DNA of 64,000 bases from a virus (lineage: Duplodnaviria > Caudoviricetes), in the IMG/VR virus record IMGVR_UViG_3300015607_004925, positions 32,001 through 96,000 of that record. The stretch is one strand, 5' to 3'. Both the position numbers and the translations under genes were made by a program. A model generated the notes under the pieces. That model was not told where the DNA came from. It saw only the letters and a list, made by a program, of their open reading frames with translations, and searched no databases. This document shows, piece after piece, positions 991 through 52,229 of the stretch (positions are counted from its first letter, which is position 1; each line of letters starts with the position of its first letter).

Positions 991-998
991 ACCCTGGA

Positions 999-1004
999 AT
1001 TATA
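999..1004 (-). promoter_or_regulatory. Putative late promoter -10 box (CC-TATAAT)
   Basis: gtcccc-TATAAT-tccagggt-ATG; one of 11 similar sites. Confidence 0.6.
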
Positions 1005-1021
1005 GGGGACGGTGCGAGATC

Positions 1022-11501: not shown

Positions 11502-11534
11502 CGCTAGATCTCCGTATCCATGGGGGTTGCGGAA

Positions 11535-11540
11535 ATTATA
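11535..11540 (-). promoter_or_regulatory. Putative late promoter -10 box upstream of sheath
   Basis: cccac-TATAAT-ttcc; GGAG RBS follows. Confidence 0.6.
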
Positions 11541-11576
11541 GTGGGACCGCGCCGATTTCCCGACCGAGACCTTCGC

Positions 11577-21772: not shown

Positions 21773-21778
21773 ATTATA
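21773..21778 (-). promoter_or_regulatory. Putative late promoter -10 box
   Basis: gcgc-TATAAT-caaa. Confidence 0.55.
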
Positions 21779-21802
21779 GCGCGAAGGGTTTCGCGTCCGC
21801 GG

Positions 21803-34235: not shown

Positions 34236-35548
34236 GACGAGGCGGCCCGCTGCGCCGCGGTCGCGCGACGGAACATGTTGCGGAGCGACGCTTCCTTCTT
34301 GTCGTCGTCCTTGTCGTCGTCCTTCTTGCCCTCCATCTTCTCGCGGATGAAGTCGGGCATGCCGCCCTTGTCCTTGTCGCCATCGTCCTTCTTCTCGTCC
34401 TTCTTCATGAAGGGCGGGAGGGCGCCGTCCTCGGCCGACTTCGTGCCCTGGTTGCCGCCACGGCCGTCGTACGCGCCGGGACGCGAGTGCGTCGCCTCGG
34501 GCGAGTGCTTCTGGTAGCCGTCGGTGCGCGAGCCCGGCGGCGTCGCCGACGGCGCGGCGGCGACGCGCTCCGCGGCCTCCTTCTGGAGGCCGCTGAGGTA
34601 GTGGTACTTCTCCTCGGTGTTGAGGCCCATGCACATGCGGACGGTCGCGATCTTCACGTCCTCGGTCATCGAGCCCGGCAGGAACTCGTGGATCTCGGCG
34701 GCGGTCTTCTTGAACAGCGCGATGTACGGGTCCTCGCCCGCGGCCTTCGCCGAGGTCTCGGTCACCGAGTTCGAGCCGCTCGGGGTCTCCGCCGGCTTGT
34801 TCGGCTGCGGCGTCTCGCGGCCGATGACCGCCGGACCGCGCACGTGTTCCATCATGGCGCCGAGTCCGCCCTGCGAGGGCAGCACGGCGTAGCCCGCGGG
34901 ACGCTGCGCGGCGTCCATCTTCGCCTCGGCGGACGACATCTCCATGTTGCCCTTGTCGCCGCCCATGATCGTCGAGCCCTCGGCCGCCTTCTGGAAGAGC
35001 GCCCGCAGCGACGACGACTTGGTCTGGTCGTTCGGCGAGTTCTCCTTGTGGTCGGTCTCCTTCGGGGCGTTCGGCTGCGGGGCCTCCTTGCCGACCGCAC
35101 CCGGGCGCGTGTCGACGTCGGTCTTGCCGCGGCTGTCCTCGGCGTAGCCCGGCGGGCGCTGCGAGGCGTCCATCTTCGTCTCGCCCGCCGGCGCCTGGCC
35201 CTGATCGTTGCCCTTGTCGCCGCCCTCGATCGTCGAGCCCTCGGCCGCCTTGGTCATCAGCTGCTCCGCGCTGCGATCCGCGAGCGCGCGGACGTCGTCC
35301 CACGAGGCGAGCTTGTTCCATCCGGCCGCCTTGAAGTTCGGCTGGCGCTTGAACCACTCGCTCGCCTCCAGAATCTGCGCCGCGACCTTCTGGTCGTCTG
35401 CGGGGCTCACGCCGCGCTCGAGGTCGAGGTTCACGTGGTCTGCGATGTAGTCGGCGACCTTGTGTGCGGTGCCCTCGTCGGGGAACATGGCGTGGCCGCT
35501 GTTGACCAGCGCAGTCTGGATGCCTCGGACGTACGCGTGCTTGAACAT
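34232..35548 (-). CDS. Head/core protein with shared N-terminal motif and internal duplication
   Basis: MFKHAYVRGIQTAL; two copies of KAAEGSTIxGGDKGN...KMDAxQRPxGYA...PQPN; GAGGAG RBS. Confidence 0.75.
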   Translation of the reverse strand: MFKHAYVRGIQTALVNSGHAMFPDEGTAHKVADYIADHVNLDLERGVSPADDQKVAAQILEASEWFKRQPNFKAAGWNKLASWDDVRALADRSAEQLMTKAAEGSTIEGGDKGNDQGQAPAGETKMDASQRPPGYAEDSRGKTDVDTRPGAVGKEAPQPNAPKETDHKENSPNDQTKSSSLRALFQKAAEGSTIMGGDKGNMEMSSAEAKMDAAQRPAGYAVLPSQGGLGAMMEHVRGPAVIGRETPQPNKPAETPSGSNSVTETSAKAAGEDPYIALFKKTAAEIHEFLPGSMTEDVKIATVRMCMGLNTEEKYHYLSGLQKEAAERVAAAPSATPPGSRTDGYQKHSPEATHSRPGAYDGRGGNQGTKSAEDGALPPFMKKDEKKDDGDKDKGGMPDFIREKMEGKKDDDKDDDKKEASLRNMFRRATAAQRAASS

Positions 35549-35584
35549 GAGATCTCCTCGAGGGGCTCTTGGCGGAACGTTGAA

Positions 35585-35590
35585 ATGATA
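35585..35590 (-). promoter_or_regulatory. Putative late promoter -10 box
   Basis: gccc-TATCAT-ttca. Confidence 0.55.
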
Positions 35591-35616
35591 GGGCGCTCGC
35601 GGGTTTTATCCAACGA

Positions 35617-35814
35617 TCACCCGAGGACCTTCGCCTTCGGCGCGCCGGCTGCCATCGCTGGCGCTGCCGGCGCCGGCGCCGCAGACGGAGGGGGGCTGGT
35701 GCCGGCTTGCCCGGTAAGCATCGGGTTGTAGCCCGCTGCCCCCTGTTGCATGTTGCCGAGCTTGAGATGGGCGAGTGCGTCGCGCGCACCTTGTGTGTAC
35801 TTGGACCGGATCAT
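35617..35814 (-). CDS. Small protein with shared N-terminal motif
   Basis: MIRSKYTQGARDALAHLKLG. Confidence 0.7.
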   Translation of the reverse strand: MIRSKYTQGARDALAHLKLGNMQQGAAGYNPMLTGQAGTSPPPSAAPAPAAPAMAAGAPKAKVLG

Positions 35815-36266
35815 AGGGGTTGCTCCTTCGGGTGTGACCCCAGCAGATGTCCGATGCCACGGCCCAATGAGGCGCCCGCGCGGCCGAGGATTGGTGCGCC
35901 AAGAATGCCGAGCGCGGGGTAGCCGTACATCGAGCCGGCAAGCCCCCCGAGCGCGCCGAGCGCCCCGGCGAGGCGGCCTTCGTGCGGGTCGGGATGTGTG
36001 AGCTGTGAGGCAAGCCCCGCACCCGCCGCGAGCGTGCTCGCGCGCGCAAGCCAGTTGAAGCGCGATCCGGCAGGACCGCTGACCGCGGGCCAGAAGACGC
36101 TCTTGGGCGACAAGAAGCCGCCCTCGCCGAACGCCTTCGGGCCCTCGATGAATGCACGGCCTGGCTGGCCAACGAGACCCTGGGCGACGTGCGACAGCAT
36201 GTTGGCTGCGATCTTGAGGCGCGCGAGCGCGTCAGCCGCGCCGCGTGCGTGGGCCTGTTTCAACAT
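35811..36266 (-). CDS. Glycine-zipper protein with shared N-terminal motif
   Basis: MLKQAHARGAADALARLKIAA; GALGALGGLAG. Confidence 0.7.
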   Translation of the reverse strand: MLKQAHARGAADALARLKIAANMLSHVAQGLVGQPGRAFIEGPKAFGEGGFLSPKSVFWPAVSGPAGSRFNWLARASTLAAGAGLASQLTHPDPHEGRLAGALGALGGLAGSMYGYPALGILGAPILGRAGASLGRGIGHLLGSHPKEQPL

Positions 36267-38047
36267 CAGTACGCCCCCTCGGCGCCTTGGCCGAACTCAG
36301 TGCCCGCGACGTACGCTGGCACAGGCGACGCGCCGTGGAGGTTGGACACGTCGCCGCGATGGATGCCCGCGAGCAACGACTCCTTGAGGTAGCGGTGCGC
36401 GAGGCGCGCCATCCAGTCGGGGTTGAGCAGCGGCGTGCGGGACGCCGGGCGCATGAGCGGCATCGCGCGCGGGCCGCTGTCGGCGATCGCGACCGACGTG
36501 ATGCCGTGGCGCACGAGGTTCTGCGCGATGGTCGGGGTGACCGCAGTGCCCGCGGTGTAGTGGAGGATGCCGTCGGCCAACGTCTCGCCGTGCGCCTCGG
36601 CGATCGGCACGCGCCGGCGCGACGCCGCGAGCGCGGCGTGGAACTTGTTGTAGTCGACGACGTCGCCCTTGATGAACGCGTCGTCGGGCCCGGGGTCGGT
36701 GATCTGCACGTGGTTGAGCACGCTCTTGGCCAGGGTCTCGAGGTGGCGCTTGTCGACCTCGGAGCCTGCTCGCTTGTACACGTCCGCAAGCGCGTCCACC
36801 AGGTAGCGGCGCCCGTCGCCCAGGCCCTTGTGGCGGACGATCTCGTCGGGCTTGGGCACGCCGTCGGAGAGCGTGTCGCCGGCGTACGTCGACTGCCCCA
36901 CGCCGACGAGCACGCGGTGGTCGGGCGGGACGTAGTGGCGCTCGTCGTCGACCATCACGTAGTGGCCGCCCTGGGGCGCCTTGTCGATCGCCTTGATGAC
37001 GCCGTCGCGCCCGGCGAGCACGGCCTTGTGCGCGAACGACGTCGGGATCTCGAGCAGCGAGCGCACGCCCTTCATGCCCTCGAGCTTCTTCTCGTCGTCG
37101 GTCTTCGTGATGCGCCCGCCGTGCTTGGCGTTGAGCGAGAACTGGGTGAGCGGCTCCGACAGCGCCTGCGCCGCGCGCATGCCGACGTTGGTGCCGATCG
37201 GGTGCACCGTGCCCGTCGGCGACAGCCCTTGGCACTTCTGGCAGACGCCGTGCGCGGCCTCGCAGGTCATCGGCGATCGCACGATGACGCTCTTGTTCGC
37301 GGCGGCGAGCTGCGAGGCGACCTGCGGCGTGATGAGGCGGTTCGTGCCCGCCTCGTAGCGGTCGATGATGTGCGGGTCGACGCCGGCCATCGCGATGCCG
37401 TTCTTCGTGCCGCAGTCGACCGTCGTCACGAGCTGGTCGCTCATGTTGTTGACGAGGATCTTGGCGAGGTCGCCGGGCTCGACGACGGAGATGTTCGAGA
37501 GCACCGCGTTGACGCGCGCCTCGCCGCCGGCCACCCACGCGTCGGCGGGCTTGAGGCCCTCGCTGAAGCTCTTGTCGATCAGCCAGGGCACGACCTTGCC
37601 CTTGGAGTCGCGCACCATCACCGGCGCGCCGACGGCGCGCATCAGCTGCGCGGCGTTGCCGCGGCCGCCGGAGCGCACCATCTCGCCCATCGTGCCCGGG
37701 TGCTTCTTCGCCAGCTCGAGCATCGCGTTCTGCGCGCCCGCGAGCGCCTTCTCCTTGTCGGCGGTCGACGTCGCCTTGCGGAACGCGTCGACGTGCGGCT
37801 TGAGCGCGGCGTCGCGCTCGCCCGTGCGGGGCGCGATGTCGTCGAGCCCGACCGAGATGCCGTCGAGCGTCGCGATCTCGTCGCCGAGGCGCTTGAGTTT
37901 GGTGACGACGTCGGGGTACTTGTCCGGCGCCTCCTTCGCGACGCCGACGAGCAGCTCGTTCAGCGACCCCTTGGTGAGCACGCCGCGACCGCGCCACTTC
38001 TCGGGAAGCGCTTGATCGACGAGGTGCCTGCCCAGGGTGGTCGCCAT
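36266..38047 (-). CDS. rpoC: DNA-directed RNA polymerase, beta' C-terminal half
   Basis: TTLGR; MVRSGGRG; bridge-helix-like ARVNAVLSNISVVEPGDLAKIL; DCGT...RSPMTC..GVCQKC Zn site; trigger loop AAQALSEPLTQFSLNAKHGG; DKRHLE. Confidence 0.9.
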   Translation of the reverse strand: MATTLGRHLVDQALPEKWRGRGVLTKGSLNELLVGVAKEAPDKYPDVVTKLKRLGDEIATLDGISVGLDDIAPRTGERDAALKPHVDAFRKATSTADKEKALAGAQNAMLELAKKHPGTMGEMVRSGGRGNAAQLMRAVGAPVMVRDSKGKVVPWLIDKSFSEGLKPADAWVAGGEARVNAVLSNISVVEPGDLAKILVNNMSDQLVTTVDCGTKNGIAMAGVDPHIIDRYEAGTNRLITPQVASQLAAANKSVIVRSPMTCEAAHGVCQKCQGLSPTGTVHPIGTNVGMRAAQALSEPLTQFSLNAKHGGRITKTDDEKKLEGMKGVRSLLEIPTSFAHKAVLAGRDGVIKAIDKAPQGGHYVMVDDERHYVPPDHRVLVGVGQSTYAGDTLSDGVPKPDEIVRHKGLGDGRRYLVDALADVYKRAGSEVDKRHLETLAKSVLNHVQITDPGPDDAFIKGDVVDYNKFHAALAASRRRVPIAEAHGETLADGILHYTAGTAVTPTIAQNLVRHGITSVAIADSGPRAMPLMRPASRTPLLNPDWMARLAHRYLKESLLAGIHRGDVSNLHGASPVPAYVAGTEFGQGAEGAY

Positions 38048-38048
38048 C

Positions 38049-38492
38049 TCACATCGGGCCGTAGCCGCCCTGCATCATCTGCTGCTGGCGGCGCCGCTCC
38101 TCCGCCTGTTGGTTGTGGCGGTGGAGCATGTAGAGCCCGCCGCCGGCGATGAGCGACGGCGCGAGGGTCTTGAGGTTGCCGACCGCCGCGCCGCGCGCGG
38201 CCGCGCCGGCCTCGGGCGACGGCGCGCCGCCGAGCCCCTGGCGGAGGTTGCCGAACAGCGCCTTCGCGGCGTCGAGCTGACCGGAGCCGAACGCCTTGGC
38301 GCGGCCCATCAGGCCGCCGGCCGCCGCCGGCGGCGCCGCGGGCGACGCCGCGGGCGACGGACCGGGCCCGAGACCGGCCGGGCCGAGATCGAGATGCGTC
38401 GCGACCCCCGGTGCGACGGTGTTCGCGTGCTTCTCGAGGCCGAGACAGCGGAGCGCGTCGGCCCGCCCCTGGGCCATGTATCGTTCGAGCAT
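38049..38492 (-). CDS. Gly/Ala-rich protein with shared N-terminal motif
   Basis: MLERYMAQGRADALRCLGLEKHA. Confidence 0.7.
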   Translation of the reverse strand: MLERYMAQGRADALRCLGLEKHANTVAPGVATHLDLGPAGLGPGPSPAASPAAPPAAAGGLMGRAKAFGSGQLDAAKALFGNLRQGLGGAPSPEAGAAARGAAVGNLKTLAPSLIAGGGLYMLHRHNQQAEERRRQQQMMQGGYGPM

Positions 38493-38965
38493 CAGAACAC
38501 CGTCCCGACGGCCGTGGGTTGTCCCATGTCACCGAGCCGGCTGGCCGTGTCGCCGGCGGAGAGATTCGAGGGCGCGCCCCACGCGGTCGCGCGGTCGAGC
38601 GGGTCCCGGGTCGAGAGCTGCGTGTTGGGCGAGATCGGCGCGTCGATCTCCTCGAGCATCTTCTCGAGGTCGTCCGAGTCCTCGGCGCCCGGCGTGCAGT
38701 CGGCCTTCTTGTTCGCCCGCTCCGACTCCGCCTTGCGGGCCGCGTCGAAGCCGTGGAACGTGCGGTCGGGGATCTTCAGGCGCAGCTCTTCGGCGGCCGA
38801 CTTCAGGCCGAGCTTGTCGAGCGCGGCCGCGCCGCCGAGCACGTAGGCGCGCTTGACCTTCTCGGGCAGCTTCTTGCCCTTGGGCGTCGCGTCCGCGAAC
38901 TCGCGCGCGACATCCGGGTGCTTGGCAAACAAGAAACGCCTTTGACTCTCGCTACGGAACGGCAT
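38492..38965 (-). CDS. Hypothetical protein with internal shared motif
   Basis: MPFRSESQRRFLFAKHP N-terminus; VKRAYVLGGAAALDKLGLKSAA. Confidence 0.7.
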   Translation of the reverse strand: MPFRSESQRRFLFAKHPDVAREFADATPKGKKLPEKVKRAYVLGGAAALDKLGLKSAAEELRLKIPDRTFHGFDAARKAESERANKKADCTPGAEDSDDLEKMLEEIDAPISPNTQLSTRDPLDRATAWGAPSNLSAGDTASRLGDMGQPTAVGTVF

Positions 38966-39491
38966 GGAGCCCCTTCCGATTCTTCCAGTTCAAAAGCCCT
39001 GCGTCGCTATGGTCGCGCGCTTTGATCCCCGCGCGCCGCAACCAACCCGCGACCGTGCCTGTCGATTTCGCGTGCGTGATGCGCATGATCTCGGCGAACG
39101 AACGCTGTTCGACGATGTACCACTGATGAAGTTCGGCGGGGGTTGGGCGCCGCGGCCGATAGGTTTCCACGATCGCCTTGAGACGTTCCAGCTTCTTCGT
39201 CGATCGAAGAGGCACCATCGCTAGCAACCGCTCCAGGGCTTCTCGCTTGGAGATAACGACGTCCCATGCACGCGCCCAGTGCGCGGGCCGCTTGGTACCG
39301 GCGCGTTCCACGATCCGGACGTCGACACAGAGGACGTCGCAGCATTCGGCCACCGCTTCGATCAAACCCCAATCTGTGTTGGTGATACGGACGACGCGAT
39401 TTCGGTTTGAAGGTGCGGGGATCGCGACCGTACCTTCGCCGTCGATCATCGCGGCAAGGTAGGCACTCGCGGTTTCCGCGTTGAAGGGCAC
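38952..39491 (-). CDS. Free-standing LAGLIDADG homing endonuclease with C-terminal HTH-like segment
   Basis: AYLAAMIDGEGTV; VRITNTD; LRSTKK; ELHQWYIVEQRSFAEI; codon usage differs from neighbours. Confidence 0.85.
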   Translation of the reverse strand: MPFNAETASAYLAAMIDGEGTVAIPAPSNRNRVVRITNTDWGLIEAVAECCDVLCVDVRIVERAGTKRPAHWARAWDVVISKREALERLLAMVPLRSTKKLERLKAIVETYRPRRPTPAELHQWYIVEQRSFAEIMRITHAKSTGTVAGWLRRAGIKARDHSDAGLLNWKNRKGLHAVP

Positions 39492-39496
39492 GCCTA

Positions 39497-39502
39497 ATTA
39501 TA
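39497..39502 (-). promoter_or_regulatory. Putative late promoter -10 box
   Basis: ccc-TATAAT-taggc-GTG. Confidence 0.6.
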
Positions 39503-39507
39503 GGGTC

Positions 39508-42500
39508 TTACCGCTCGACTTCGATCGGATCGTTCAGCGAGATCTCGCCGCGGTGGTAGGCGGCCATCGCTTCCTCGGTCGAGGCGAAGTGGCGGGTCTT
39601 CTTGTCGTTCGGCGCCTGCGTCGCCCGGTGCAGGCCGAGCAGGCTCTCCATCTCGGGCGCGACGTTGAGCACGCCCGGCCGCTTGTCGGCGAAGATCATG
39701 TGCGAGAGCGTCATCCGCTTGACGTCCTCGACGCCGCCCGGCGTGACCGGGGCGTGGATCTGCATCGCGTCGCCGTCGTAGTCGGCGTTCGTGCCCTTCT
39801 CGGCGAAGGGGTTCAGCTTGAGCGTCTTGCCGTCGATGATCTTCGGGTAGGCGCCGACGATGTTGAAGCGATGGAGCGACGGCGCACGGTTGACCATCAC
39901 GGGCCGCTCGCGACTCTCGTTGACCAGCTCCTCGCGCGCGATCGGCACGCGGTCGTCGACCATCTTCTGCGCGTCGGTCGCCGAGTAACCGCGGCGCACG
40001 AGCCGACCGATCACGAACTTGCCGTACATGCCCCAGAGCATCCCCTCGGGCACGCCGATCTCGTCCATCGAGAGCGTCGGGTCCGGCGCGATCGTCGCGC
40101 GGCCCGACACGTCCTGCTGGCGCTTCATGATGCGCGACTGGAAGAAGCCCGAGCCCGGCCGCGTGCCGGTGATCGCCGCGAGGTAGCCCTTCGCGCCGCG
40201 CTTCTCCGCGCCCGGCGACACCGGCTCGCCGACGCCGAACAGCGCGCTCACCGCGTCGTAGAGGTGCTGGCGCGGCGCGGCGTGCTCGGGCGCCGGCAGC
40301 GACTCCTTGGCGCCGTGGAGCTGGTCGTTCGCGAGGAACGCGTCCTTGTAGAGCAGGTTCGCGTCGCCGACCTGGAGCTTGCCGTCCTTGAGCGGCAGGA
40401 TCGGTCGGATGACCGGCGGCGTCACCGGGATCTTCGAGAGGACGTACGCGTTCTCCGGCTTGAGGTCGCGTTCCTTCAGGGCCTCGAGGTACTTGATCTG
40501 CTTCACGACGCCGTCGAGCGCGGGGCCGCGCGCCTTCTTCGACTGCGCGCGCAGCTCGGCGAGCTTGTCGTCGACGTCGATCGCGCCGAGCGCGCTCTTG
40601 AACCAGTGGCCGCCCTTGCCGACGTGCGCGGTGAACTCCTTCTGCGTGAGCCCGAGCAGGCGCCGCACGGGCTCCTCGAACACCGGGTTGACGATCGGCT
40701 CGGCGAGGTCGACGTGCGACCACTTCGTGCCCGCCATGCCGCCGGTCACCGTCGGGTCGAACAGCCCGCCGCTCTCCGGGCGCAGGTCCTTGGCGCGGAT
40801 CAGCTTCTGCGGGTCCTTGAGCACGCCGGCCGACATCGCCGCGACGTCGGCGTCGGTGAGCGGGCCGAGCGAGAGCCGCGAGCCGCTCTTGTTCACCTTC
40901 ACGCCGGCGCCGGTCAGCATGCCGAGGAACTTGTCGTAGGCGAACGGCGACTTCGGCGCGGGCGTCGGCAGGCCGAGCTGCACCGCGCGCCAGAACTCGT
41001 CGTTGCGCTGGCTCTTGATCGCCGCGGCCTCGCGAAGCACGTTGCGCGCGTTGTGGGCCACGAGCCCGTCGAACTCCATCTTGCCGATGCCCTTGGCGCC
41101 GTCGTCGCCGCCGCGCGCGGGCTGCTGGTTGTAGTCGTAGCGCTCGGCGCCGTGCGCAGCCCAGTTCGAGTCGGTCGTCTTGAACAGCTTCAGGATGTAG
41201 CTCTTGCCGACCATGATGTCGGGGATCTTCTTCCCCGTGATCGGGTCGAGCACGGTCTCCTTGTCGGTGAGGCCGTGTTCCTCGAGCAGCTTCTTCGCGT
41301 AGGCGACGTTGTCGCGGCCCGGCACGTAGGGCGGGACGACGATCGGCTTGCCGGTCTTCTCGGCGACCTTGCCGAGCATCGACTCGATGGTCTGCGCCGG
41401 GTTGATGCGCGAGACGATGCCCGCCGACGTGAACAAGATGTCCACGGGGCGGCCGTGCTGGTCCTGGATCATCTGGTGGTCGGGGATGATCTTCGCGATG
41501 ACGCCCTTGTTGCCGTAGCGGTTCGACAGCTTGTCGCCGATCTGCAGCGCCTCCTGCGTGCGCACCGACGCGCTCACACGTCCCGCGGTGTCCGCGACGT
41601 CGACGACGGTGCCCGGCTTGTCGTGGCTCCAGACCTCGACGACCTCGTCGAAGGGCTTGACCAGCGACTTGGACAGCTTGCCGAGCAGCGCGGCGTCGCC
41701 GGTCGTGCGCGCCTCGCGAACGCCGACCATGATCGGGTCGCCGGGGTGGAGCACGACGCCCGGGCGCGCCACGCCGTTCTCGTCGAGCTTGTCGTACTGC
41801 GCCTTGGTGTAGCGGCTGCCGAAGTACGCGCGGTGCTTCTCGCGGTTGAGCTTGGTGGTGTCGTTCTTGTCGATCGTCGACTGGTACATGTGCTCGGACA
41901 CGAGCTTGTCCGCCGCGCCTTGGCTGACGACGATGCCGTCGTTCGTGTTGAGCCCGCGGTAGGGCATGTACGCGACGCGCAGGTTCGTGCCGAGCGCGAG
42001 CGTGCCGTCCTTGGTGAAGTTCGACTCGGCGAGCGGCTGCCCCGCCTCGACGCGATCGCCGGCCTTCACGGTCAGCGTGTTGTGCAGCGCGGTCTTCGCG
42101 GCGAGCGGGAAGTCCGTGTCGTAGTGGATCCGCTGCGCCTCGGCCGAGGTCTTGTGCGCGCCCGGCGTGAAGTGGATGTAGTCGTCGTCGATCTTGGTGA
42201 TCGTGCCCGCGCTCGGCGCCGTCGGCACGACGAGCCGGACCATCTCCTTCTCGACGGAGACGCCGGGCTTCCACGACTCGACCTGGACCAGCGGCGCCTC
42301 GCGGTGCACGAGCGGCAGCGCCTGGCCCTGGTGCTTGGACGCCATGAGCACGCGGTTGCCCTGGATGCCGTAGACGAACGGCAGGAGGTTCGACGTCGGC
42401 CCGTACTGGTCGGCGTCGTGGATGATCTGGTGCGTCACCTCGTCGGCGCGCACGCGCGAGACCGCGCCGTCCTTCATCGCGTCGACGAGCTTGCCCGGCG

Positions 42501-43857
42501 CGACGTGCTCGCCCGGGAACGCCACCACCGACCTCGCCATGTCGGCGGCCTTGAGCCAGATCTCCTTGCCCGACTTCACGTCACGCACCGGCGCGTAGAC
42601 GTCGCCCTTGTCGTCACGCTTGGCCCCGATGGCCATGCGGAGGTCGACGCCGATCTTGAAACTTTCGGGCGAGCGCGCCGGATCGATGATGCCGAAGTGG
42701 GTCGGATGGAGGTCGCGAGCCTCGAGCGGGATGGCGCGCTCGGACGCGATCGCACCCTCGCCGAGCATCGTGACGCGCGCCGCCTCATCAATCAGCTCCA
42801 TCGGGTTGATCTGCATCGGCACCGCCGATAGAGATGACCCGGTGAGCAGATCCCGCAGCGAGCGCGTGAACGGGCCGGCAGGCATCGCCTTCTTCAAGTT
42901 GCCGTGCGCGGCGTCGAGCTTGTAGCCGAGCTTCGAACGCATCGCGCGCGCGTCGAGCTGGACGCGCTCCTTCACGAAGTCGTCGACCGAGTGGAACGTC
43001 TTGAAGGCGAGCGAGTCGCGGTCATCGACGTCCGCCGCCGCCGCCTTGTGGATGTCGAGCAGCTTCTTCGACGCGGCGAGCATCGCTGCCGGCGACGCCT
43101 TCTCGTGCGGGTAACCCAAGGTGTGGAGGTTGACCTCGGGGTCCATCACGGTCTGGTCGAAGTACTCGCGCAGCACCCGTGCCCGCTCCTCGGGTGTCGC
43201 GGCGGTCTGCCGCGCCGGATGGATGAGCGTCTCGTACAGCTTGTCGACGTGCTTCTCGGGCGCCTTCCACGCGTCGCGGTTCACCGCCGCGACGGCATGT
43301 CCCCACGCGGACGCGATGTCCTGCTGGGGGACACCGAGCGCGCGTAGCACCGGGTGCAGCGGGATGCGTGACGTCGTGTGCGACGGCTGCATGTAGAGCA
43401 GGCCCTTCTCGGCGTCCATCGACACCTTGAAGTTGGCGCCCTTGGCGAGGTTGAAGCCTGCCTCCAGTTCTTCGTTGCCGCGCCGGCGCACGTACGCGCC
43501 AGGCTTCTGGCGCAGCTGGTTGGACACCGAGTACTCGGTGCCGTCGACGATGAACGTGTGCCGTGGCGTGAAGTACGGCAGCTGCAAGAGCGTGAAGTCC
43601 TTCGCGTGGTCGACCTGCGTGCCGGTCGCGTCCTTCACGGTGATGTCGCCCCGCACGCGCTCGGACAGCGTTCGACCCTCGAGGATCGCGCGTTTCTGCT
43701 CACGCGACGAGAACTCCTTGGGGTCGACGCGGACGTTCGTCAGCTCGAGTGTGTGCTTGCCCGCCTTGATCGGGAACGCCTGCGCAAGGCCTTCCACGAC
43801 CTTCTTGCGGATCATCTCGCGCCGCGTGGCGGAGTCCTCGAGGACAGGGCGAAGCAT
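39508..43857 (-). CDS. rpoBC: DNA-directed RNA polymerase, beta fused to beta' N-terminal half
   Basis: Beta motifs TFIVDGTE, RDLHPTHFGIIDP..SPE, NRVLMASKHQGQA, GDKLSNRYGNKGVI, GIVSRIN, GIGKME; then beta' motifs GGLFDP, HVDLAEP, SGRATI, NRAPSLH, catalytic NADYDGD. Confidence 0.93.
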   Translation of the reverse strand: MLRPVLEDSATRREMIRKKVVEGLAQAFPIKAGKHTLELTNVRVDPKEFSSREQKRAILEGRTLSERVRGDITVKDATGTQVDHAKDFTLLQLPYFTPRHTFIVDGTEYSVSNQLRQKPGAYVRRRGNEELEAGFNLAKGANFKVSMDAEKGLLYMQPSHTTSRIPLHPVLRALGVPQQDIASAWGHAVAAVNRDAWKAPEKHVDKLYETLIHPARQTAATPEERARVLREYFDQTVMDPEVNLHTLGYPHEKASPAAMLAASKKLLDIHKAAAADVDDRDSLAFKTFHSVDDFVKERVQLDARAMRSKLGYKLDAAHGNLKKAMPAGPFTRSLRDLLTGSSLSAVPMQINPMELIDEAARVTMLGEGAIASERAIPLEARDLHPTHFGIIDPARSPESFKIGVDLRMAIGAKRDDKGDVYAPVRDVKSGKEIWLKAADMARSVVAFPGEHVAPGKLVDAMKDGAVSRVRADEVTHQIIHDADQYGPTSNLLPFVYGIQGNRVLMASKHQGQALPLVHREAPLVQVESWKPGVSVEKEMVRLVVPTAPSAGTITKIDDDYIHFTPGAHKTSAEAQRIHYDTDFPLAAKTALHNTLTVKAGDRVEAGQPLAESNFTKDGTLALGTNLRVAYMPYRGLNTNDGIVVSQGAADKLVSEHMYQSTIDKNDTTKLNREKHRAYFGSRYTKAQYDKLDENGVARPGVVLHPGDPIMVGVREARTTGDAALLGKLSKSLVKPFDEVVEVWSHDKPGTVVDVADTAGRVSASVRTQEALQIGDKLSNRYGNKGVIAKIIPDHQMIQDQHGRPVDILFTSAGIVSRINPAQTIESMLGKVAEKTGKPIVVPPYVPGRDNVAYAKKLLEEHGLTDKETVLDPITGKKIPDIMVGKSYILKLFKTTDSNWAAHGAERYDYNQQPARGGDDGAKGIGKMEFDGLVAHNARNVLREAAAIKSQRNDEFWRAVQLGLPTPAPKSPFAYDKFLGMLTGAGVKVNKSGSRLSLGPLTDADVAAMSAGVLKDPQKLIRAKDLRPESGGLFDPTVTGGMAGTKWSHVDLAEPIVNPVFEEPVRRLLGLTQKEFTAHVGKGGHWFKSALGAIDVDDKLAELRAQSKKARGPALDGVVKQIKYLEALKERDLKPENAYVLSKIPVTPPVIRPILPLKDGKLQVGDANLLYKDAFLANDQLHGAKESLPAPEHAAPRQHLYDAVSALFGVGEPVSPGAEKRGAKGYLAAITGTRPGSGFFQSRIMKRQQDVSGRATIAPDPTLSMDEIGVPEGMLWGMYGKFVIGRLVRRGYSATDAQKMVDDRVPIAREELVNESRERPVMVNRAPSLHRFNIVGAYPKIIDGKTLKLNPFAEKGTNADYDGDAMQIHAPVTPGGVEDVKRMTLSHMIFADKRPGVLNVAPEMESLLGLHRATQAPNDKKTRHFASTEEAMAAYHRGEISLNDPIEVER

Positions 43858-43862
43858 GGAGA

Positions 43863-44141
43863 CTACTCCGGGTTCTGTGCGTCGAACGCACTCCAGCGTG
43901 CCGCGATCTCGACAGGGTCATGCGTGATGTCGGGATACGCTTTCTTGAAAGCGATCGAGCGCTTCGCACCCTTGATCGCCGCGTCCGGGTCGTCATACAC
44001 GAGATAGACGTTTTGGACGCCGTTCGGCTGCAGGACGCTGGGGAGCAGACATCCGGTTGGGATGTGGATGAAATGCAGTCCAACACCCGCGCCCTCGTTG
44101 CAGATGATGGTCCACGCGTCCCGTTGTTCTTGAGTCAGCAT
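43863..44141 (-). CDS. Hypothetical protein
   Basis: Start ATG 44141 (MLTQEQ); AT-rich upstream gap. Confidence 0.6.
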   Translation of the reverse strand: MLTQEQRDAWTIICNEGAGVGLHFIHIPTGCLLPSVLQPNGVQNVYLVYDDPDAAIKGAKRSIAFKKAYPDITHDPVEIAARWSAFDAQNPE

Positions 44142-44171
44142 ATGCACCCTTTCTTTGGTAGAAGTAGTTAC

Positions 44172-44546
44172 TTAGGGCATTTTCCGCGGTCGCGCCGCAG
44201 GTTCGGCGTCGCCGGCGGCGATGTTATCCGCCGGCGCGAGGCGCCGCCGGGGCGTCATCCAGCAGATCGCCACCAGGAAGTCGCCGTCCTTGGTGAACGT
44301 CTTCTCCTCGTAGCGGAGCACGGCGTCACCACGGAGGATCTCGTTCATCACGTCCTCGTAGTCCGCGGCGTCCGTCGGCACGGCGAACACCTTGATGTGC
44401 GCCTCGAAGTCGTACTCGACGCCGGGCTTCCCGCGCGCCGGGACGAACGCCTCGCGCCCTGCGAACGGGCTCGCGACGTCGCCCGGGCTCACGCGCTGCG
44501 CCTTCTCGATGACGTCGCCGAAGTCGGTCGATTCTGATCCAGCCAT
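44172..44546 (-). CDS. Hypothetical protein
   Basis: 124 aa between portal and RNA polymerase. Confidence 0.7.
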   Translation of the reverse strand: MAGSESTDFGDVIEKAQRVSPGDVASPFAGREAFVPARGKPGVEYDFEAHIKVFAVPTDAADYEDVMNEILRGDAVLRYEEKTFTKDGDFLVAICWMTPRRRLAPADNIAAGDAEPAARPRKMP

Positions 44547-44550
44547 AGGC

Positions 44551-44565
44551 GTTTATCCTATCACC
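44551..44565. promoter_or_regulatory. Palindromic operator-like site (GTTTAT-N3-ATAAAC family)
   Basis: gtttat-cct-atcacc, 4 nt upstream of ATG 44546. Confidence 0.55.
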
Positions 44566-44566
44566 C

Positions 44567-46354
44567 TCACGCCACCGGAAGCATGCCGCCACCGGAGAGG
44601 TCTCCGCCGCCGTTCTTGGCCGCCGCGATCGCCTGGTGGTTCTGCAGCGTCGTCTGCGTCTCGAGGCGGTCCTTCACGACCGCGTACATCACCGCGTCTT
44701 CGCCCTGGAGCGCGTGGAGTTGGGAGCGCCGCGAGCCCTCGTCCAACCCCATGAGCTGCTGGACGATCTGGTCGGCGTTCGCGATCACCATCTGCTGGTC
44801 GTAGCCGAGCCCGCCCTGCTGTCCCATCGCCGCCTGCGCGCGCGCCTGGTTGGCCAGGTTCGACTGGCGCTTCTGCATCTCGTTCTGCAGTTCCTGCTGG
44901 ACGCGCGCCTCCTCGAGCGCCTCCTGCTTGCGCCACTTCCGCTCGTCCTGCGGGTCGACGTCGAACGCCTCGCCGAGCGTGCGCTTCGACAACCATGGGC
45001 CCGTCGTCGGATCCGCCATGTTGAGTTGCAGGAGCAGCGCCTTCTGTTGGACGTCGTCGATGAACCGGAACGGCGCGAGCGAGCACTCGACCGTGCCGCG
45101 GCCGAGCTTCTTCGCCGACATGTCCGTGATCCACTGGAGCAGGTCGTTGAGATCGCCGGTCTGGTGGACGAGTTGGTTTTCGAGCACGCGGAGCTGGATG
45201 CCCGAACCCATCGCCGAGAAGCCGCCGTAGATGAACTCCTTCGGCAAGCCCAGCGCGGCGATGATGTTGTCCTCGGCCGCCTGGACCTCGCCGAGGGTCA
45301 TGAGCGCACGGGCTTGGCCGCCGAGGTGCGTGACCTCGGCGGGAATCGGCGACCACATGATGTGGAGCGGGTCGCGGCGCCACTTCTTGACCGAGTGCTT
45401 CATCTCGTCCGACCACTTCGAGAGCGAGATGGTCAGCATCGGGTCTGCGTTGCCGCTGGCGACCTTGGGCGAGATGATCCGAAGCGGGACGACGTAGTCG
45501 AGCGCGATGGCCTCGTTTGCCTTGCGCAGCACCGCCGCGTAGAAGAACAACTTGATCGTCGACGCGAGCGGCGGGAAACCCCACTGGGCCTCGATGCCCG
45601 CCGGCGCGTCCATGCGCATGTGGAAGACCTGCCCCTCGGCGAACTTGAAGATCTTGTCGTCGCGGAGCGCCTTCAAGAACTCCATCGGCATCGTGTCGAT
45701 GAGGTGCTTGGACCCCTTCGCCGCGCGCTCCTTCAGTTCCTTGGGGATGGTGTAGAAGTACTCGCTGTGGCCGGTGATGGGGTTGTAGTCGATGTCCATC
45801 AGCTTCGGGTCCCAGCGGATCACCGAGAGCCGGTCCTTGCGGGTGATCGGCTTATCGACGACGTGTCGGTGATCGATCAGCACGCGCTGCCGACACCCGG
45901 CGCACTCGTAGTCGAACGAGAGCTTCTTCAGCTTGAACTTGTACGTGACCTGCGTGATGTTGGTCAGCTGGTCGCACTTCGTGCACTTCAGGAAGCGCGC
46001 GAAGGGTGAGTACATCGAGAAGAACGCGTTGCCGTAAACGAACTTGTCGACGGCGGCGCGGATGAGGATGCGCTTGGTCTTCAGCGTCTTGTCGTGCAGG
46101 TTCTCGTAGTAGTCCTTGAGCGACTCGTTCTGCGTCTCGTAGACGATGTCGGTCACCGGGTACGTGCAGAACTTCTGCAACGCGGCGTAGATCTGGGAGC
46201 TGTTGAAGTAGAGGTACTCGCACAGCCGAAACAGGTCCTTCAGCTTCCGCGGCGCGAACGCCGTCAAGAAGTCGAACAGGGGGCTGCCATGCGAGGCCGT
46301 GTTGTGGCCTGCAAGGTCCGCGACGCCAGGGTCAAACATTCCGTCAGCCATCAT
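44567..46354 (-). CDS. Portal protein with inserted Zn ribbon
   Basis: 595 aa; DKFVYGNAF, RWDPK, VFHMR..WGFPPL, IIAALGLPKEFIYG; CTKC...CAGC insertion. Confidence 0.8.
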   Translation of the reverse strand: MMADGMFDPGVADLAGHNTASHGSPLFDFLTAFAPRKLKDLFRLCEYLYFNSSQIYAALQKFCTYPVTDIVYETQNESLKDYYENLHDKTLKTKRILIRAAVDKFVYGNAFFSMYSPFARFLKCTKCDQLTNITQVTYKFKLKKLSFDYECAGCRQRVLIDHRHVVDKPITRKDRLSVIRWDPKLMDIDYNPITGHSEYFYTIPKELKERAAKGSKHLIDTMPMEFLKALRDDKIFKFAEGQVFHMRMDAPAGIEAQWGFPPLASTIKLFFYAAVLRKANEAIALDYVVPLRIISPKVASGNADPMLTISLSKWSDEMKHSVKKWRRDPLHIMWSPIPAEVTHLGGQARALMTLGEVQAAEDNIIAALGLPKEFIYGGFSAMGSGIQLRVLENQLVHQTGDLNDLLQWITDMSAKKLGRGTVECSLAPFRFIDDVQQKALLLQLNMADPTTGPWLSKRTLGEAFDVDPQDERKWRKQEALEEARVQQELQNEMQKRQSNLANQARAQAAMGQQGGLGYDQQMVIANADQIVQQLMGLDEGSRRSQLHALQGEDAVMYAVVKDRLETQTTLQNHQAIAAAKNGGGDLSGGGMLPVA

Positions 46355-46369
46355 TCATCTCGCTTTGGT

Positions 46370-46384
46370 GTTTATCCCATAGAC
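46370..46384. promoter_or_regulatory. Palindromic operator-like site
   Basis: gtttat-ccc-atagac in the portal/helicase divergent gap. Confidence 0.6.
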
Positions 46385-46394
46385 GTCGACCGTC

Positions 46395-46400
46395 ATGGTA
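46395..46400 (-). promoter_or_regulatory. Putative late promoter -10 box upstream of portal
   Basis: ttc-TACCAT, with the palindrome 10 nt downstream. Confidence 0.4.
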
Positions 46401-48398
46401 GAAAGACAGCCGCGAATGCCTGCACGTATGGAAGTCCGCGTTGGCCGCGCGGGGAACGGCACCCCTGTGTTCATGGTGGCCGGCAACCACCCATCCTTCA
46501 GCCGCCCCTTCGGTGCGATCTGGGACGAGACCCGCGCGATGTGGATGTACCCGGCTTTCTTCCCGGCGTCCCAGAAGGTCCTCTCGGACCTCGAGGTGAT
46601 CTCGGGCGAGGTCGATGTCATCCTGTCCGACCCCGTGAAGCGGCACGTGGCCGCCCTCGAGCAGGTCCGTGACCGACTCGCGCAACGCGCGCTGCCCCCG
46701 GGCTTCGAGTTCGTCACCAAGCCGTACGAACACCAGATCGACGGGTTGTGTCACGTGTACTACCTGATGCGCGCGGCGCTTTTCTACGAGCAGGGGCTCG
46801 GCAAGTGCAAGATCGCCGTCGATCTTGTGCGCCTGCTGCGGGCGACCGGCGTCCGCACGACGGCCCTGGTTCTTGGGCCCCGTGTCACCGTCCAGAACTG
46901 GGGCCGTGAGATCGACCTTCATTCGGGCAGGGCCCTCTCGTGGATCACGATCACCGGCACGCCCAAGCAGAAACAGGCCGCGATCGAACGGGCGGCTGCT
47001 GAGGGTACAGACATCGTGTTGTCCACGTACGACACCGCTAGAAGTTTAGTGGATTCGCTGGTCTCGCGGCTACCTTACGGCATCCTCGTCTGCGACGAGA
47101 GCCACAACGTCAAGTCCTGGCGGTCGGAACGGACGAAGACGACGTGGGAGATCGCCCAGAAAGCGAGCCGGCGGATCCTCATGACGGGCTCGCCGACCGA
47201 AGGCAACCCGCTCGACTTGTACGGGCCGTACAAGATCCTGGGCGACTGCTTCATGCCGGAGAACTACTTCGCCTACAAGAAGAAGTTCGTCGAGACCGCC
47301 GGCCCCAACTCCCCCATCGTGCGCGGCTTCAAGCACCTCGACGTCCTGAACGCGCGAACCGTCTTCCTCAGCTCGCGGCGCACCAAGGCGCAATGCCTAG
47401 ACCTGCCGCCGCGTACGTTCGTCGACGTCGAGTACGAGCTGAGCGACACCCAAGGCGTTGCGTACAACCAGATCGTCACGACGCTCGGCATCGACCCGGT
47501 CACGATCCACGAACTGGTGACCGTCCTGCGCAGCGGCGACCCGACGCGTGCGCTGCAAGCGCCGGCTTTGCCGCCCGCCATGGAGCTACCCCACCGTGCG
47601 GCTGCGCTCATCAAGCTGCAGCAGATCACGAGCGGATTCCTGGTGAAGAACGAGAAGGACCCTTCGTTCTGTGACAATGCCGGCGCCGGTGGCGGTCCGT
47701 GCGTGTACATGCGGGGCTGTGTCGACAACGGCATCAAGCCGCACACGCCCCGCTGCGAGGTCGACAAGACGCCGTGGCCCCGCTCGATCTCGTTCTTTGA
47801 CAAGAACCCCAAGCTCGACGCGATCGTCGAGAAGCTCGCCGATGTTCTCGTCCAGGCCGAGAGCAAGGTCATCGTGTGGTGTACGCACATCGACGAGATG
47901 AACCTGCTCGCTGCACGGATCACCGAGAACGACATCCGCTACGTGCGCCTCGACGGTGGTGCTGACCCACAGCCCGTCATCGACGCGTTCAACCTCGATC
48001 CAGAGGTCCGCGTCCTCATCGGACAGGAGTCGATGGGCGTCGGCATCACCCTCAACGCCGCCGACTACGTGATCTACAGCTCGCTGCCGCTGTCACTGAA
48101 CCGCTGGACGCAGACGCTCGACCGCAACTATCGCATCGGTCAGAAGCGCAACGTCACGGTCTACCGCATGGTCGGGCGCGGCACGCTCGAGGCTCCGATC
48201 GCTCACCTGCTCGACCACAAGATCAACGTGGACGAACTGCTGACCGTCAAGATCGAGTGCGGCCTCTGCCCGCGCGTCGTCCCGTGCCGGGACGCCGGCA
48301 TCGAACCCTTCGATACCGGCTGCATCCACCCCACCCGCGTCGCGCGCCCGACCATCAAGGCGCGTGTCTTGCCGATGTTCCCTGGAGGCAACTCGTGA
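46395..48398 (+). CDS. SNF2-family helicase
   Basis: PYEHQ, EQGLGK, CDESH, MTGSP, GVGITLNAA, RNYRIGQ; start may be 46416 or 46428. Confidence 0.9.
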   Translation: MVERQPRMPARMEVRVGRAGNGTPVFMVAGNHPSFSRPFGAIWDETRAMWMYPAFFPASQKVLSDLEVISGEVDVILSDPVKRHVAALEQVRDRLAQRALPPGFEFVTKPYEHQIDGLCHVYYLMRAALFYEQGLGKCKIAVDLVRLLRATGVRTTALVLGPRVTVQNWGREIDLHSGRALSWITITGTPKQKQAAIERAAAEGTDIVLSTYDTARSLVDSLVSRLPYGILVCDESHNVKSWRSERTKTTWEIAQKASRRILMTGSPTEGNPLDLYGPYKILGDCFMPENYFAYKKKFVETAGPNSPIVRGFKHLDVLNARTVFLSSRRTKAQCLDLPPRTFVDVEYELSDTQGVAYNQIVTTLGIDPVTIHELVTVLRSGDPTRALQAPALPPAMELPHRAAALIKLQQITSGFLVKNEKDPSFCDNAGAGGGPCVYMRGCVDNGIKPHTPRCEVDKTPWPRSISFFDKNPKLDAIVEKLADVLVQAESKVIVWCTHIDEMNLLAARITENDIRYVRLDGGADPQPVIDAFNLDPEVRVLIGQESMGVGITLNAADYVIYSSLPLSLNRWTQTLDRNYRIGQKRNVTVYRMVGRGTLEAPIAHLLDHKINVDELLTVKIECGLCPRVVPCRDAGIEPFDTGCIHPTRVARPTIKARVLPMFPGGNS

Positions 48399-51404: not shown

Positions 51405-52229
51405 CTACAGGTAGGCGTCTTCGAGCGAGAGCTTGACGTCGCTCTTGAGGACGTCTTGTAGCAGCTGCATCCCGTTGATCTTGATCTGACGAACACGCTC
51501 GGGGCACATACCCATGAGGTCCGCGATCTGGACCAGGTTGCGGGGTTCGTCCTTCACTCCGAAGTAGAGATTCAGGACGGTCTGCTCACGTACAGGAAGC
51601 TGCGCGATCCCATGGCGAACCAGGAAACGAAGCCGCTCCATGCCGTAGGCCGTGGTCGGCTCGCGCGCATCGCAGGTGTTACGCGCTGCGTCGAGCGTCG
51701 TGACGACGCCCTCAGGATGTCCAGGGTCCATGTCTCGCACACGCGCATGCTCGGGGCCGTGCTCCTGAAGGGCGGCACGGAACTCGCGCGCGGCGCGACG
51801 CTGGGCCTTCTGGCGGTGCGCCGGCACGTGTACCAGCGACGAGGACGTGTAGTCCTGGTTGGACATCTCCTCGTAGACCCACCAGCCGGCGTAGGTCAGG
51901 AAGCGGATGTACGGCTTGCGTCGGGTGTCGAACCGGTCGGCTGCCTTGAGCAAGCCGAGGTTGCCTGCGGCGATGAAATCCTTCACCGCCTCCGGGTCCT
52001 TGGTCCGCTTGTGGGCTTGCTGGACGACGAACTTGAGGTGTGTCTGGACGATCGCGTCGCGCGCCTTGGTGTCGTGCTTCTCCTGCCAGCGGCGGAGAAG
52101 GTGCTTCTCTTCGTCTGGATCGTCGATCGTCGGGGCGCGCGCGACCTCGGCGTAGTATGCCGCGGATGTACGACAGACCGTGTTCCCCATGTGTACGGGG
52201 ACTCTACGCCGAAGCGGGGCGTTCATCAA
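51405..52229 (-). CDS. Sigma-70-family RNA polymerase sigma factor
   Basis: Region 2 HLKFVV...DFIAAGNLGLLKAADRFD...FLTYAGWWV; region 4 LPVREQTVL...CPERVRQI; start uncertain (52229, 52226 or 52190). Confidence 0.9.
   Translation of the reverse strand: MMNAPLRRRVPVHMGNTVCRTSAAYYAEVARAPTIDDPDEEKHLLRRWQEKHDTKARDAIVQTHLKFVVQQAHKRTKDPEAVKDFIAAGNLGLLKAADRFDTRRKPYIRFLTYAGWWVYEEMSNQDYTSSSLVHVPAHRQKAQRRAAREFRAALQEHGPEHARVRDMDPGHPEGVVTTLDAARNTCDAREPTTAYGMERLRFLVRHGIAQLPVREQTVLNLYFGVKDEPRNLVQIADLMGMCPERVRQIKINGMQLLQDVLKSDVKLSLEDAYL

Follow-up and report, generated by a model that had tools for sequence, protein, structure and literature searches.

A bacterial-type RNA polymerase rearranged into a beta-beta' fusion chain and a separate beta' C-terminal half in a large clade of tailed phages

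In bacteria, an alpha dimer is the platform on which RNA polymerase is assembled, and promoters are recognized via a sigma factor. The two large subunits of the enzyme, beta and beta', are covalently linked in Helicobacter and Wolbachia, where the fused rpoB-rpoC gene places the C-terminus of beta on the N-terminus of beta'; this beta' is complete and unsplit, and alpha and omega are present. In cyanobacteria and plastids beta' is cut past its catalytic barrel into the products of rpoC1 and rpoC2. Here we describe a locus in which beta is joined to beta' and beta' is also cut. It belongs to an uncultured tailed phage, known from the complete IMG/VR record IMGVR_UViG_3300015607_004925 (184,915 bp, with direct terminal repeats). 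The stretch analyzed, referred to below as the window, comprises 64,000 nucleotides (bases 32001-96000 of the record; positions are those of the window unless stated otherwise) and has a G+C content of ~67%. One gene encodes a chain of 1449 amino acids (aa) that holds beta and the front half of beta' (beta::beta'N, chain 1), and a second gene encodes the remainder of beta' in 593 aa (beta'C, chain 2), adding up to 2042 residues.

Several multisubunit polymerases of other tailed phages can be compared with this one. Those of phiKZ and AR9 are, as here, phage-encoded and free of alpha and omega, their beta' is cut past the double-psi barrel, and one of their sets is packed in the virion (PMC7598289). 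They differ in having beta in two or three polypeptides that are never joined to beta', in possessing two paralogous sets, in lacking sigma and in being far more diverged; the window, with an intact beta, the beta-beta' join, one set and a sigma gene, falls outside the phiKZ/AR9 type. Reviews of jumbo-phage polymerases deal with this type only, and the phages that carry it are said to be sigma-free (PMC7598289, PMC7824862). The mReC polymerases (Weinheimer and Aylward, 2020; PMC7481178), found in uncultured tailed phages, some of ~180 kb, share with the window a compact beta and beta' and the NADxDGD loop. In the mReC entries compared they consist of a separate beta (1011-1377 aa) and an adjacent, complete beta' (903-1005 aa), each of at least 800 aa by definition, a length that chain 2 does not reach, with neither a fusion nor a split. 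No paper describing the two-chain layout was found in the open-access literature, and the architecture is a variant as yet undescribed in print. The best explanation overall, and one that we consider likely, is that the window encodes the phage's own single two-chain core enzyme of bacterial type, inherited, free of alpha and omega, sigma-using and probably packaged.

Chain 1 is encoded on the minus strand at 39508-43857, with beta at approximately residues 1-990 and the N-terminal half of beta' at 991-1449. The initial annotation of this DNA, made from the letters and open reading frames, had read the chain as beta motifs followed by a beta' N-half with the catalytic loop, and both Pfam and PDB alignments agree with that reading. 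Pfam recognized Rpb2_3 and Rpb2_6 (PF00562, E 1.3e-46, residues 588-907), followed by Rpb1_1 and Rpb1_2 (E 1.4e-21), and in alignments to PDB chains residues 89-1008 corresponded to residues 99-1077 of the 1104 of cyanobacterial beta (8gzg_C) and residues 1074-1447 to residues 160-550 of beta'; the beta part matched the beta chains of many other solved enzymes too. The catalytic Mg loop NADYDGD (39769-39789, minus strand, residues 1357-1363) aligns to the bacterial beta' NADFDGD with its three Asp retained, and across 21 relatives the Asn, both flanking Asp and the Gly-Asp are invariant. The beta' clamp helices also align well to their bacterial counterparts. An AlphaFold model of residues 890-1449 was of moderate quality (predicted local distance difference test score, pLDDT, 68), and its Foldseek matches just reaffirmed beta'.

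The join itself was mapped with a profile built from 21 family members over residues 890-1449. Profile positions 1-100 are the C-terminus of beta and positions 102-144 already correspond to beta' residues 35-76 (8i23_D), so that the end of beta enters beta' near its residue 35, linker-free; the first beta' residues past the join read LSLGPLTD (40852-40875, minus strand, residues 995-1002). The next aligned block starts at profile position 187, which corresponds to beta' residue 193, and only 43 profile positions stand in the place of beta' 76-193. From this gap it follows that ~75 residues are missing, among them the N-terminal Zn-binding domain of beta', and there is not a single Cys in the 1449 residues of the chain. 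At its other end, chain 1 finishes at a position equivalent to E. coli beta' 548 and to residues 552-556 of the 624-626 of cyanobacterial gamma. The pocket in which rifampicin binds is altered as well, with Q513, D516, H526 and S531 of E. coli replaced by A, M, E and T. Resistance to this drug in bacteria arises by changes at 516, 526 and 531, and since these positions are altered the phage polymerase should be insensitive to rifampicin.

Chain 2 (36266-38047, minus strand) begins with MATTLGR and was recognized by Pfam as Rpb1_5. When its first 150 residues were used as a single sequence, the search of PDB gave chance matches only, and the chain was aligned by means of a four-member profile. 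This profile corresponds to residues 906-1126 and 1182-1407 of Thermus thermophilus beta' and includes the bridge helix and the trigger loop, so that the proposal that the C-terminal half of beta' is a gene of its own stands. The second Zn site is present (Cys 212, 262, 269 and 272, all invariant) and there is no lineage insertion. Profile position 6 falls on residues 571-574 of proteobacterial beta', and positions 27-29 on residues 6-13 of the cyanobacterial beta' chain. The cut lies therefore in the same region as that between rpoC1 and rpoC2, near it but not at it, as had also been suggested: the phage cut falls ~20-25 aligned residues upstream of the rpoC2 start, before the TTxGR motif, and ~45 further residues of cyanobacterial gamma have no counterpart in the phage chains. 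These results confirm the identity of the two proteins as bacterial-type beta and beta' in two rearranged chains, and the polymerase that they would form is probably functional.

The same arrangement was found well beyond this genome. Searches by tblastn with the fused chain aligned it over its full length to proteins of Salmonella phage Arash (36% identity) and of Vibrio phages D69, D148 and D181 (34%), and chain 2 aligned end to end with Arash gp216 (31% identity). In a large protein database, more than 120 clusters (64-93% identity) combine the same four Pfam domains in a single protein, and the contigs that encode them reach 185-197 kb. Scanning IMG/VR with chain 2 gave 44 loci (46-90% identity), and all those with enough upstream DNA showed portal, fused chain (matching query residues 2-1447) and beta'C in this order on one strand, the fused gene and beta'C being separated by 0.85-5.4 kb; identities across the 40-odd loci with this order range from 45 to 93%. 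End-to-end alignments of beta'C begin at residues 1-5 in the 44 loci and in Arash, at the TTxGR start, and a fused upstream gene was likewise seen in two loci that belong to the family's distant half. No match was obtained by megablast of the polymerase region against phage records. The layout is ancient and clade-wide and marks a huge clade of ~185-195-kb phages that includes Arash, and the family is very large and almost unstudied. Two contigs of the clade have been binned into bacterial metagenome-assembled genomes, one assigned to Pseudomonadota (L055, 67% identity) and the other, a 131-kb contig, to Acidimicrobiaceae (L056, 43% identity), which is a weak and conflicting hint of the host.

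Such recurrence bears directly on the possibility that the arrangement is only apparent, that is, a product of a frameshift, a misassembly or pseudogene decay, or that an intron or a split intein reunites the two halves. Rejoining does occur in the family, because what looks like a break of the fusion gene in Vibrio phage D181 is a group I intron. Nevertheless, the initial annotation's own worry, a frameshift or assembly artifact, is excluded by the identical layout in cultured phages, metagenomic clusters and IMG/VR loci, and the boundaries are the same in hundreds of independent assemblies. Rfam detected no RNA family over 35000-47000, so that the cut in the window is not an intron. The gap between the halves is filled by conserved protein genes (in Arash by genes on the opposite strand), and the end of chain 1 and the start of chain 2 fall at exactly homologous positions, which leaves no room for split-intein halves. 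An artifact or a rejoining of the halves is thus extremely improbable, and we take the fusion and the cut as real features of the enzyme. The D181 genome (L002) carries two group I introns (5661-5868 and 9458-9738), the second of which lies within the beta::beta'N gene, with a homing endonuclease gene after it; in the record, the pieces are listed as individual hypothetical proteins. We had first read this interrupted gene as a true split made by the endonuclease, and dropped that reading once Rfam identified the intron. D148 likewise has a group I intron in its fusion gene, and both differ in this from the window.

Arash and Vibrio phages D69, D148 and D181 are cultured representatives of the same system. 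They have the same two chains, the same start of beta'C, a portal gene just upstream and a sigma gene in the genome (181-187 kb). The order in Arash is portal gp204, gp205, gp206 (1525 aa), a gap of 4.7 kb and gp216 (606 aa); this gap differs from that of the window and contains nine genes, of which six lie on the opposite strand. The window phage differs from Arash also in its 67% G+C and in its host. In the Arash paper the two proteins were annotated as plain beta and beta', and the fusion is not mentioned (PMC10585845).

A way to glimpse at the origin of the layout is to look for relatives in which beta' is still whole. Chain 2 had 5189 matches in an exhaustive search, with 1131 representatives at E < 1e-30 (cellular beta' included). 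Among the best 150 of these representatives, 127 begin at the cut (61 plain, 49 with inteins or other inserts and 17 with C-terminal extensions such as GNAT), another 14, of 2013-2578 aa, contain beta and beta' in one chain, and 4 have a longer N-terminus; P0198, the one of these four that was checked, is an unsplit beta'. The one-chain protein P0179 (2077 aa) has all the beta and beta' domains, and since its residue 1470 matches the end of chain 1 and its residue 1475 the start of chain 2, the break spans only ~4 residues. Both P0179 and P0235 (2042 aa) are collinear with chains 1 and 2 of the window at 34-36% identity and are unsplit, unlike the window. No paper describing these one-chain relatives was found in the open-access literature.

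The phylogeny that the initial annotation had asked for was built with FastTree and with IQ-TREE (LG+C20+F+G4, 70 rows), using 12 bacterial beta' sequences as outgroup, and the two were concordant. The phage clade had a support of 100, all split forms fell in one clade (Shimodaira-Hasegawa-like approximate likelihood ratio test, SH-aLRT, 95), and the one-chain forms were basal. Before rooting on the bacterial sequences, a midpoint-rooted tree had led us to consider the split as ancestral and the one-chain form as derived, an interpretation that we abandoned. With one-chain forms basal and split forms in one clade, the trees suggest that a one-chain ancestor was broken once, and the history would most simply be that beta and beta' were fused in an ancestral phage and that one break then took place before TTxGR. 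This history is weakened by the arrangement of the basal one-chain forms, which the trees left unresolved, and by the long branch of the outgroup, because of which the root is not secure and may be misplaced.

The next question is which other subunits the phage provides. No alpha or omega gene had been recognized in the initial annotation, and this holds for the whole 184,915-bp genome: hidden Markov models (HMMs) for alpha and omega (PF01000, PF01193 and PF01192) found nothing in it, and matched in 14 of 14 control genomes. There is one Rpb2_6 locus and one Rpb1_2 locus genome-wide, that is, a single polymerase set. On the basis of these negative searches the enzyme would be a minimal two-chain one; counting against this, a diverged or phage-specific additional subunit would escape the HMMs. 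The models for T4-type capsid (PF07068) and T7-type polymerase (PF00940) were also blank, and since they matched in none of the controls either they are uninformative.

A sigma-70-family gene (51405-52229, minus strand, 274 aa, with Pfam Sigma70_r2 and Sigma70_r4) lies 7.5 kb from the polymerase genes, and an 82%-identical homologue is found in the same neighborhood of a close relative (L006). In a search with this sigma against phage records the matches listed, none of them from Arash, were either unannotated records or sigmas of bacterial type. A second, weak match to sigma-70 region 2 (E 0.018) was seen in a 198-aa frame outside the window (genome positions 130398-130493, plus strand). The 274-aa protein is likely the promoter-recognition subunit of the phage polymerase, and two observations favor this reading: the clamp helices, which are the main sigma dock, are retained and well aligned, and the window, L006 and Arash each encode a sigma along with the polymerase, both of which are present in the Arash particles. 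The alternative is that the nearby sigma redirects the host core, and that the phage enzyme uses a phage-specific factor like the non-virion enzymes of phiKZ and AR9. The phage chain lacks the Zn-binding domain with which beta' touches sigma in bacterial holoenzymes, a feature that fits this alternative. So does the example of the phiKZ-type enzymes, which are sigma-free and have gp68- or gp226-like subunits (PMC7598289, PMC7824862). Set against the retained dock and the repeated co-occurrence, we regard the redirection of the host core as unlikely and favor a sigma that serves the phage's own polymerase.

Some promoter-like elements were also found. A scan for sigma-70 promoters and terminators over 35500-46600 did not rise above background level. 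Genome-wide, the hexamer TATAAT occurs 9 times, always after a C; 8 of the 9 read CTATAATT, and in 7 cases, most of them within the structural module, a visible ATG or GTG follows 5-12 nt downstream. The one at 39496-39503 (minus strand) is located in the 16-nt gap past the stop of the fusion gene, 5 nt ahead of the next start codon. Other sites of this type are 11534-11541, 2812-2819 and 998-1005 (minus strand), together with 21773-21779 (CTATAATC). A -35 element is not apparent at the TATAAT sites. The element CTATAATT looks like a late promoter giving rise to leaderless or nearly leaderless transcripts.

Whether the polymerase travels inside the particle is suggested mainly by its position and by Arash. 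The polymerase genes of the window are just downstream of the portal gene (44567-46354, minus strand, 595 aa; 29% identity, E 5e-89, to Arash portal gp204) and are flanked by small proteins bearing head tags, which bears out the head-module setting noted before. The portal is assigned solely through the comparison with Arash, since neither Pfam nor PHROGs gave a match for it or for the small neighbors. When Arash particles were analyzed by mass spectrometry after sucrose-gradient purification and pelleting, gp206 had the top spectral count (3516), and gp216 (1210) and the sigma gp10 (467) were also present (PMC10585845). By analogy, it is plausible but unproven that the enzyme of the window is packed in the capsid.

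Several observations weigh against packaging. The case for it consists of the Arash particle data, for proteins that are 31-36% identical, and of gene position. The Arash preparation contained 116 proteins, ribonucleotide reductase and many other obviously cytoplasmic enzymes among them, and its authors allow for carry-over of abundant enzymes (PMC10585845). Neither of the two polymerase chains carries the helical head tag, and their K-x-A sites are at expectation (12 observed against 11.1 expected, and 3 against 4.3), with a two- to three-fold excess in several of the neighboring head proteins. Depletion or excess of K-x-A had been considered as a mark of exposure of the polymerase to the head protease, and gave no signal. 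Packaging would thus need a route other than the tag.

The same observations would suit a polymerase that is made during infection for middle or late genes only, the early ones being read by the host polymerase, perhaps redirected by sigma; large phages that have a sigma and no polymerase do use the host enzyme (PMC7824862). This non-virion scenario is hard to reconcile with gp206 being the most counted protein in gradient-purified particles that also contain gp216 and sigma, with the location of the polymerase genes between portal and head genes in every relative, and with the single polymerase set, which means that no separate virion enzyme exists. We find it improbable for these reasons, and keep a packaged polymerase as the preferred interpretation.

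The genes around the polymerase complete the picture of the locus. The three open reading frames that had been noted between its halves are present, all on the minus strand, and one of them is a recent mobile insertion. Following the fusion gene these are a free-standing LAGLIDADG homing endonuclease (38952-39491, 179 aa; Pfam LAGLIDADG_3, E 7e-6), a small protein with the head tag YVLGGAAALDKL (38492-38965, 157 aa, 82% identical to a 153-aa gene at the same place in L006) and a Gly/Ala-rich small protein (38049-38492, 147 aa, 63% identical to a 127-aa gene, also at the same place in L006) for which no family match was found. Within the near clade, both small proteins (157 and 147 aa) are conserved. 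Distant relatives have other genes at this place, some of them being again small and Gly-rich, and nothing suggests that the intervening genes are polymerase subunits. Another small protein with a head tag (HARGAADALARL; 35811-36266, minus strand, 151 aa) abuts beta'C; it was identified by the match to the tag, and homologues lie directly past beta'C in near relatives. Small glycine-zipper-like proteins beside beta'C or the one-chain gene were seen at L053:3620-4045, L002:13675-13854 and L051:12569-13216, and in the window at 38049-38492 and 35811-36266; those flanking the polymerase of distant members have no detectable homology to each other.

On the other side of the fusion gene, a conserved frame (44172-44546, minus strand, 124 aa) lies between it and the portal gene and is 70% identical to a 123-aa gene at the same place in L006. 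Between this 124-aa gene and the fusion gene there is a 94-aa open reading frame (43863-44147, minus strand) without a counterpart in 47 related loci and without a family match. It was tried as the counterpart of Arash gp205 and did not match, and it may be a recent insertion or non-coding. Divergent from the portal gene is an SNF2-family helicase (46395-48398, plus strand), as is also the case in L006, and in Arash a helicase is found directly past beta'C. Phages of the phiKZ type likewise have a Swi2/Snf2 helicase linked to their polymerase genes (PMC7824862).

The recent arrival of the endonuclease can be read from the comparison with L006, the 92%-identical relative, which has two genes only between the polymerase genes. 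The DNA alignment shows an insertion of ~540 bp just past the first four codons of the next gene, with its MPF start duplicated. The endonuclease has in this way taken the ribosome site and the first codons (MPF) of the 157-aa gene, which restarts with the duplicated MPF at the 3' end of the element. The 179-aa gene is absent at this site in L006, L007, L011 and L012, and a 51%-identical endonuclease occupies the same site in L008-L010 and L019, the remaining loci lacking it. It is a recently inserted, mobile, free-standing element and falls outside the ancestral layout.

Other mobile elements abound in the family. In relatives, LAGLIDADG inteins occupy the barrel of either beta or beta', and beta can carry a GNAT insert. 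The intein load is very high (P0002, P0040, P0078, P0104, P0157 and P0176); the LAGLIDADG inteins lie in both barrels and in beta'C, and some proteins have two. GNAT acetyltransferase domains appear at the C-terminus of beta'C in P0128-P0133 and P0135 (an addition of ~340-500 aa, checked in P0128), and inserted within beta in P0034 and P0038, all of these being from sister lineages of the window's clade. Inteins, group I introns and free-standing endonucleases have settled in the beta::beta'N gene family to an exceptional degree.

The likely working of the enzyme can be outlined as follows. Chain 1, with beta and the front half of beta', and chain 2, with the remainder of beta', would together form the core enzyme, and the covalent beta-beta' join probably stands in for the alpha dimer as assembly platform. 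The nearby sigma-70-family protein would dock on the retained clamp helices of beta' and recognize the promoters, and the enzyme would probably be packed in the capsid, by analogy with the Arash particles, and injected to start transcription. A bolder version, that the two chains and sigma make up a complete holoenzyme without alpha and omega, packaged and injected, indifferent to rifampicin and rendering the phage independent of the host polymerase from the first minute, is possible, but we hold it tentatively and short of probable. If this is true, the ~2050-aa one-chain relatives would be the smallest natural cores of a bacterial-type polymerase in one polypeptide. The alpha-less phage enzymes known so far (phiKZ and AR9) have also dropped sigma, whereas the Arash-like family appears to keep it; with sigma kept and the assembly platform replaced by the beta-beta' join, it would be a natural minimal sigma-type enzyme. 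Such an enzyme could be used for probing the need for alpha and omega, would lend itself to structural studies and could serve as an orthogonal transcription system of compact size. As cultured members exist (Arash and the Vibrio D phages), these questions can be tested at the bench now.

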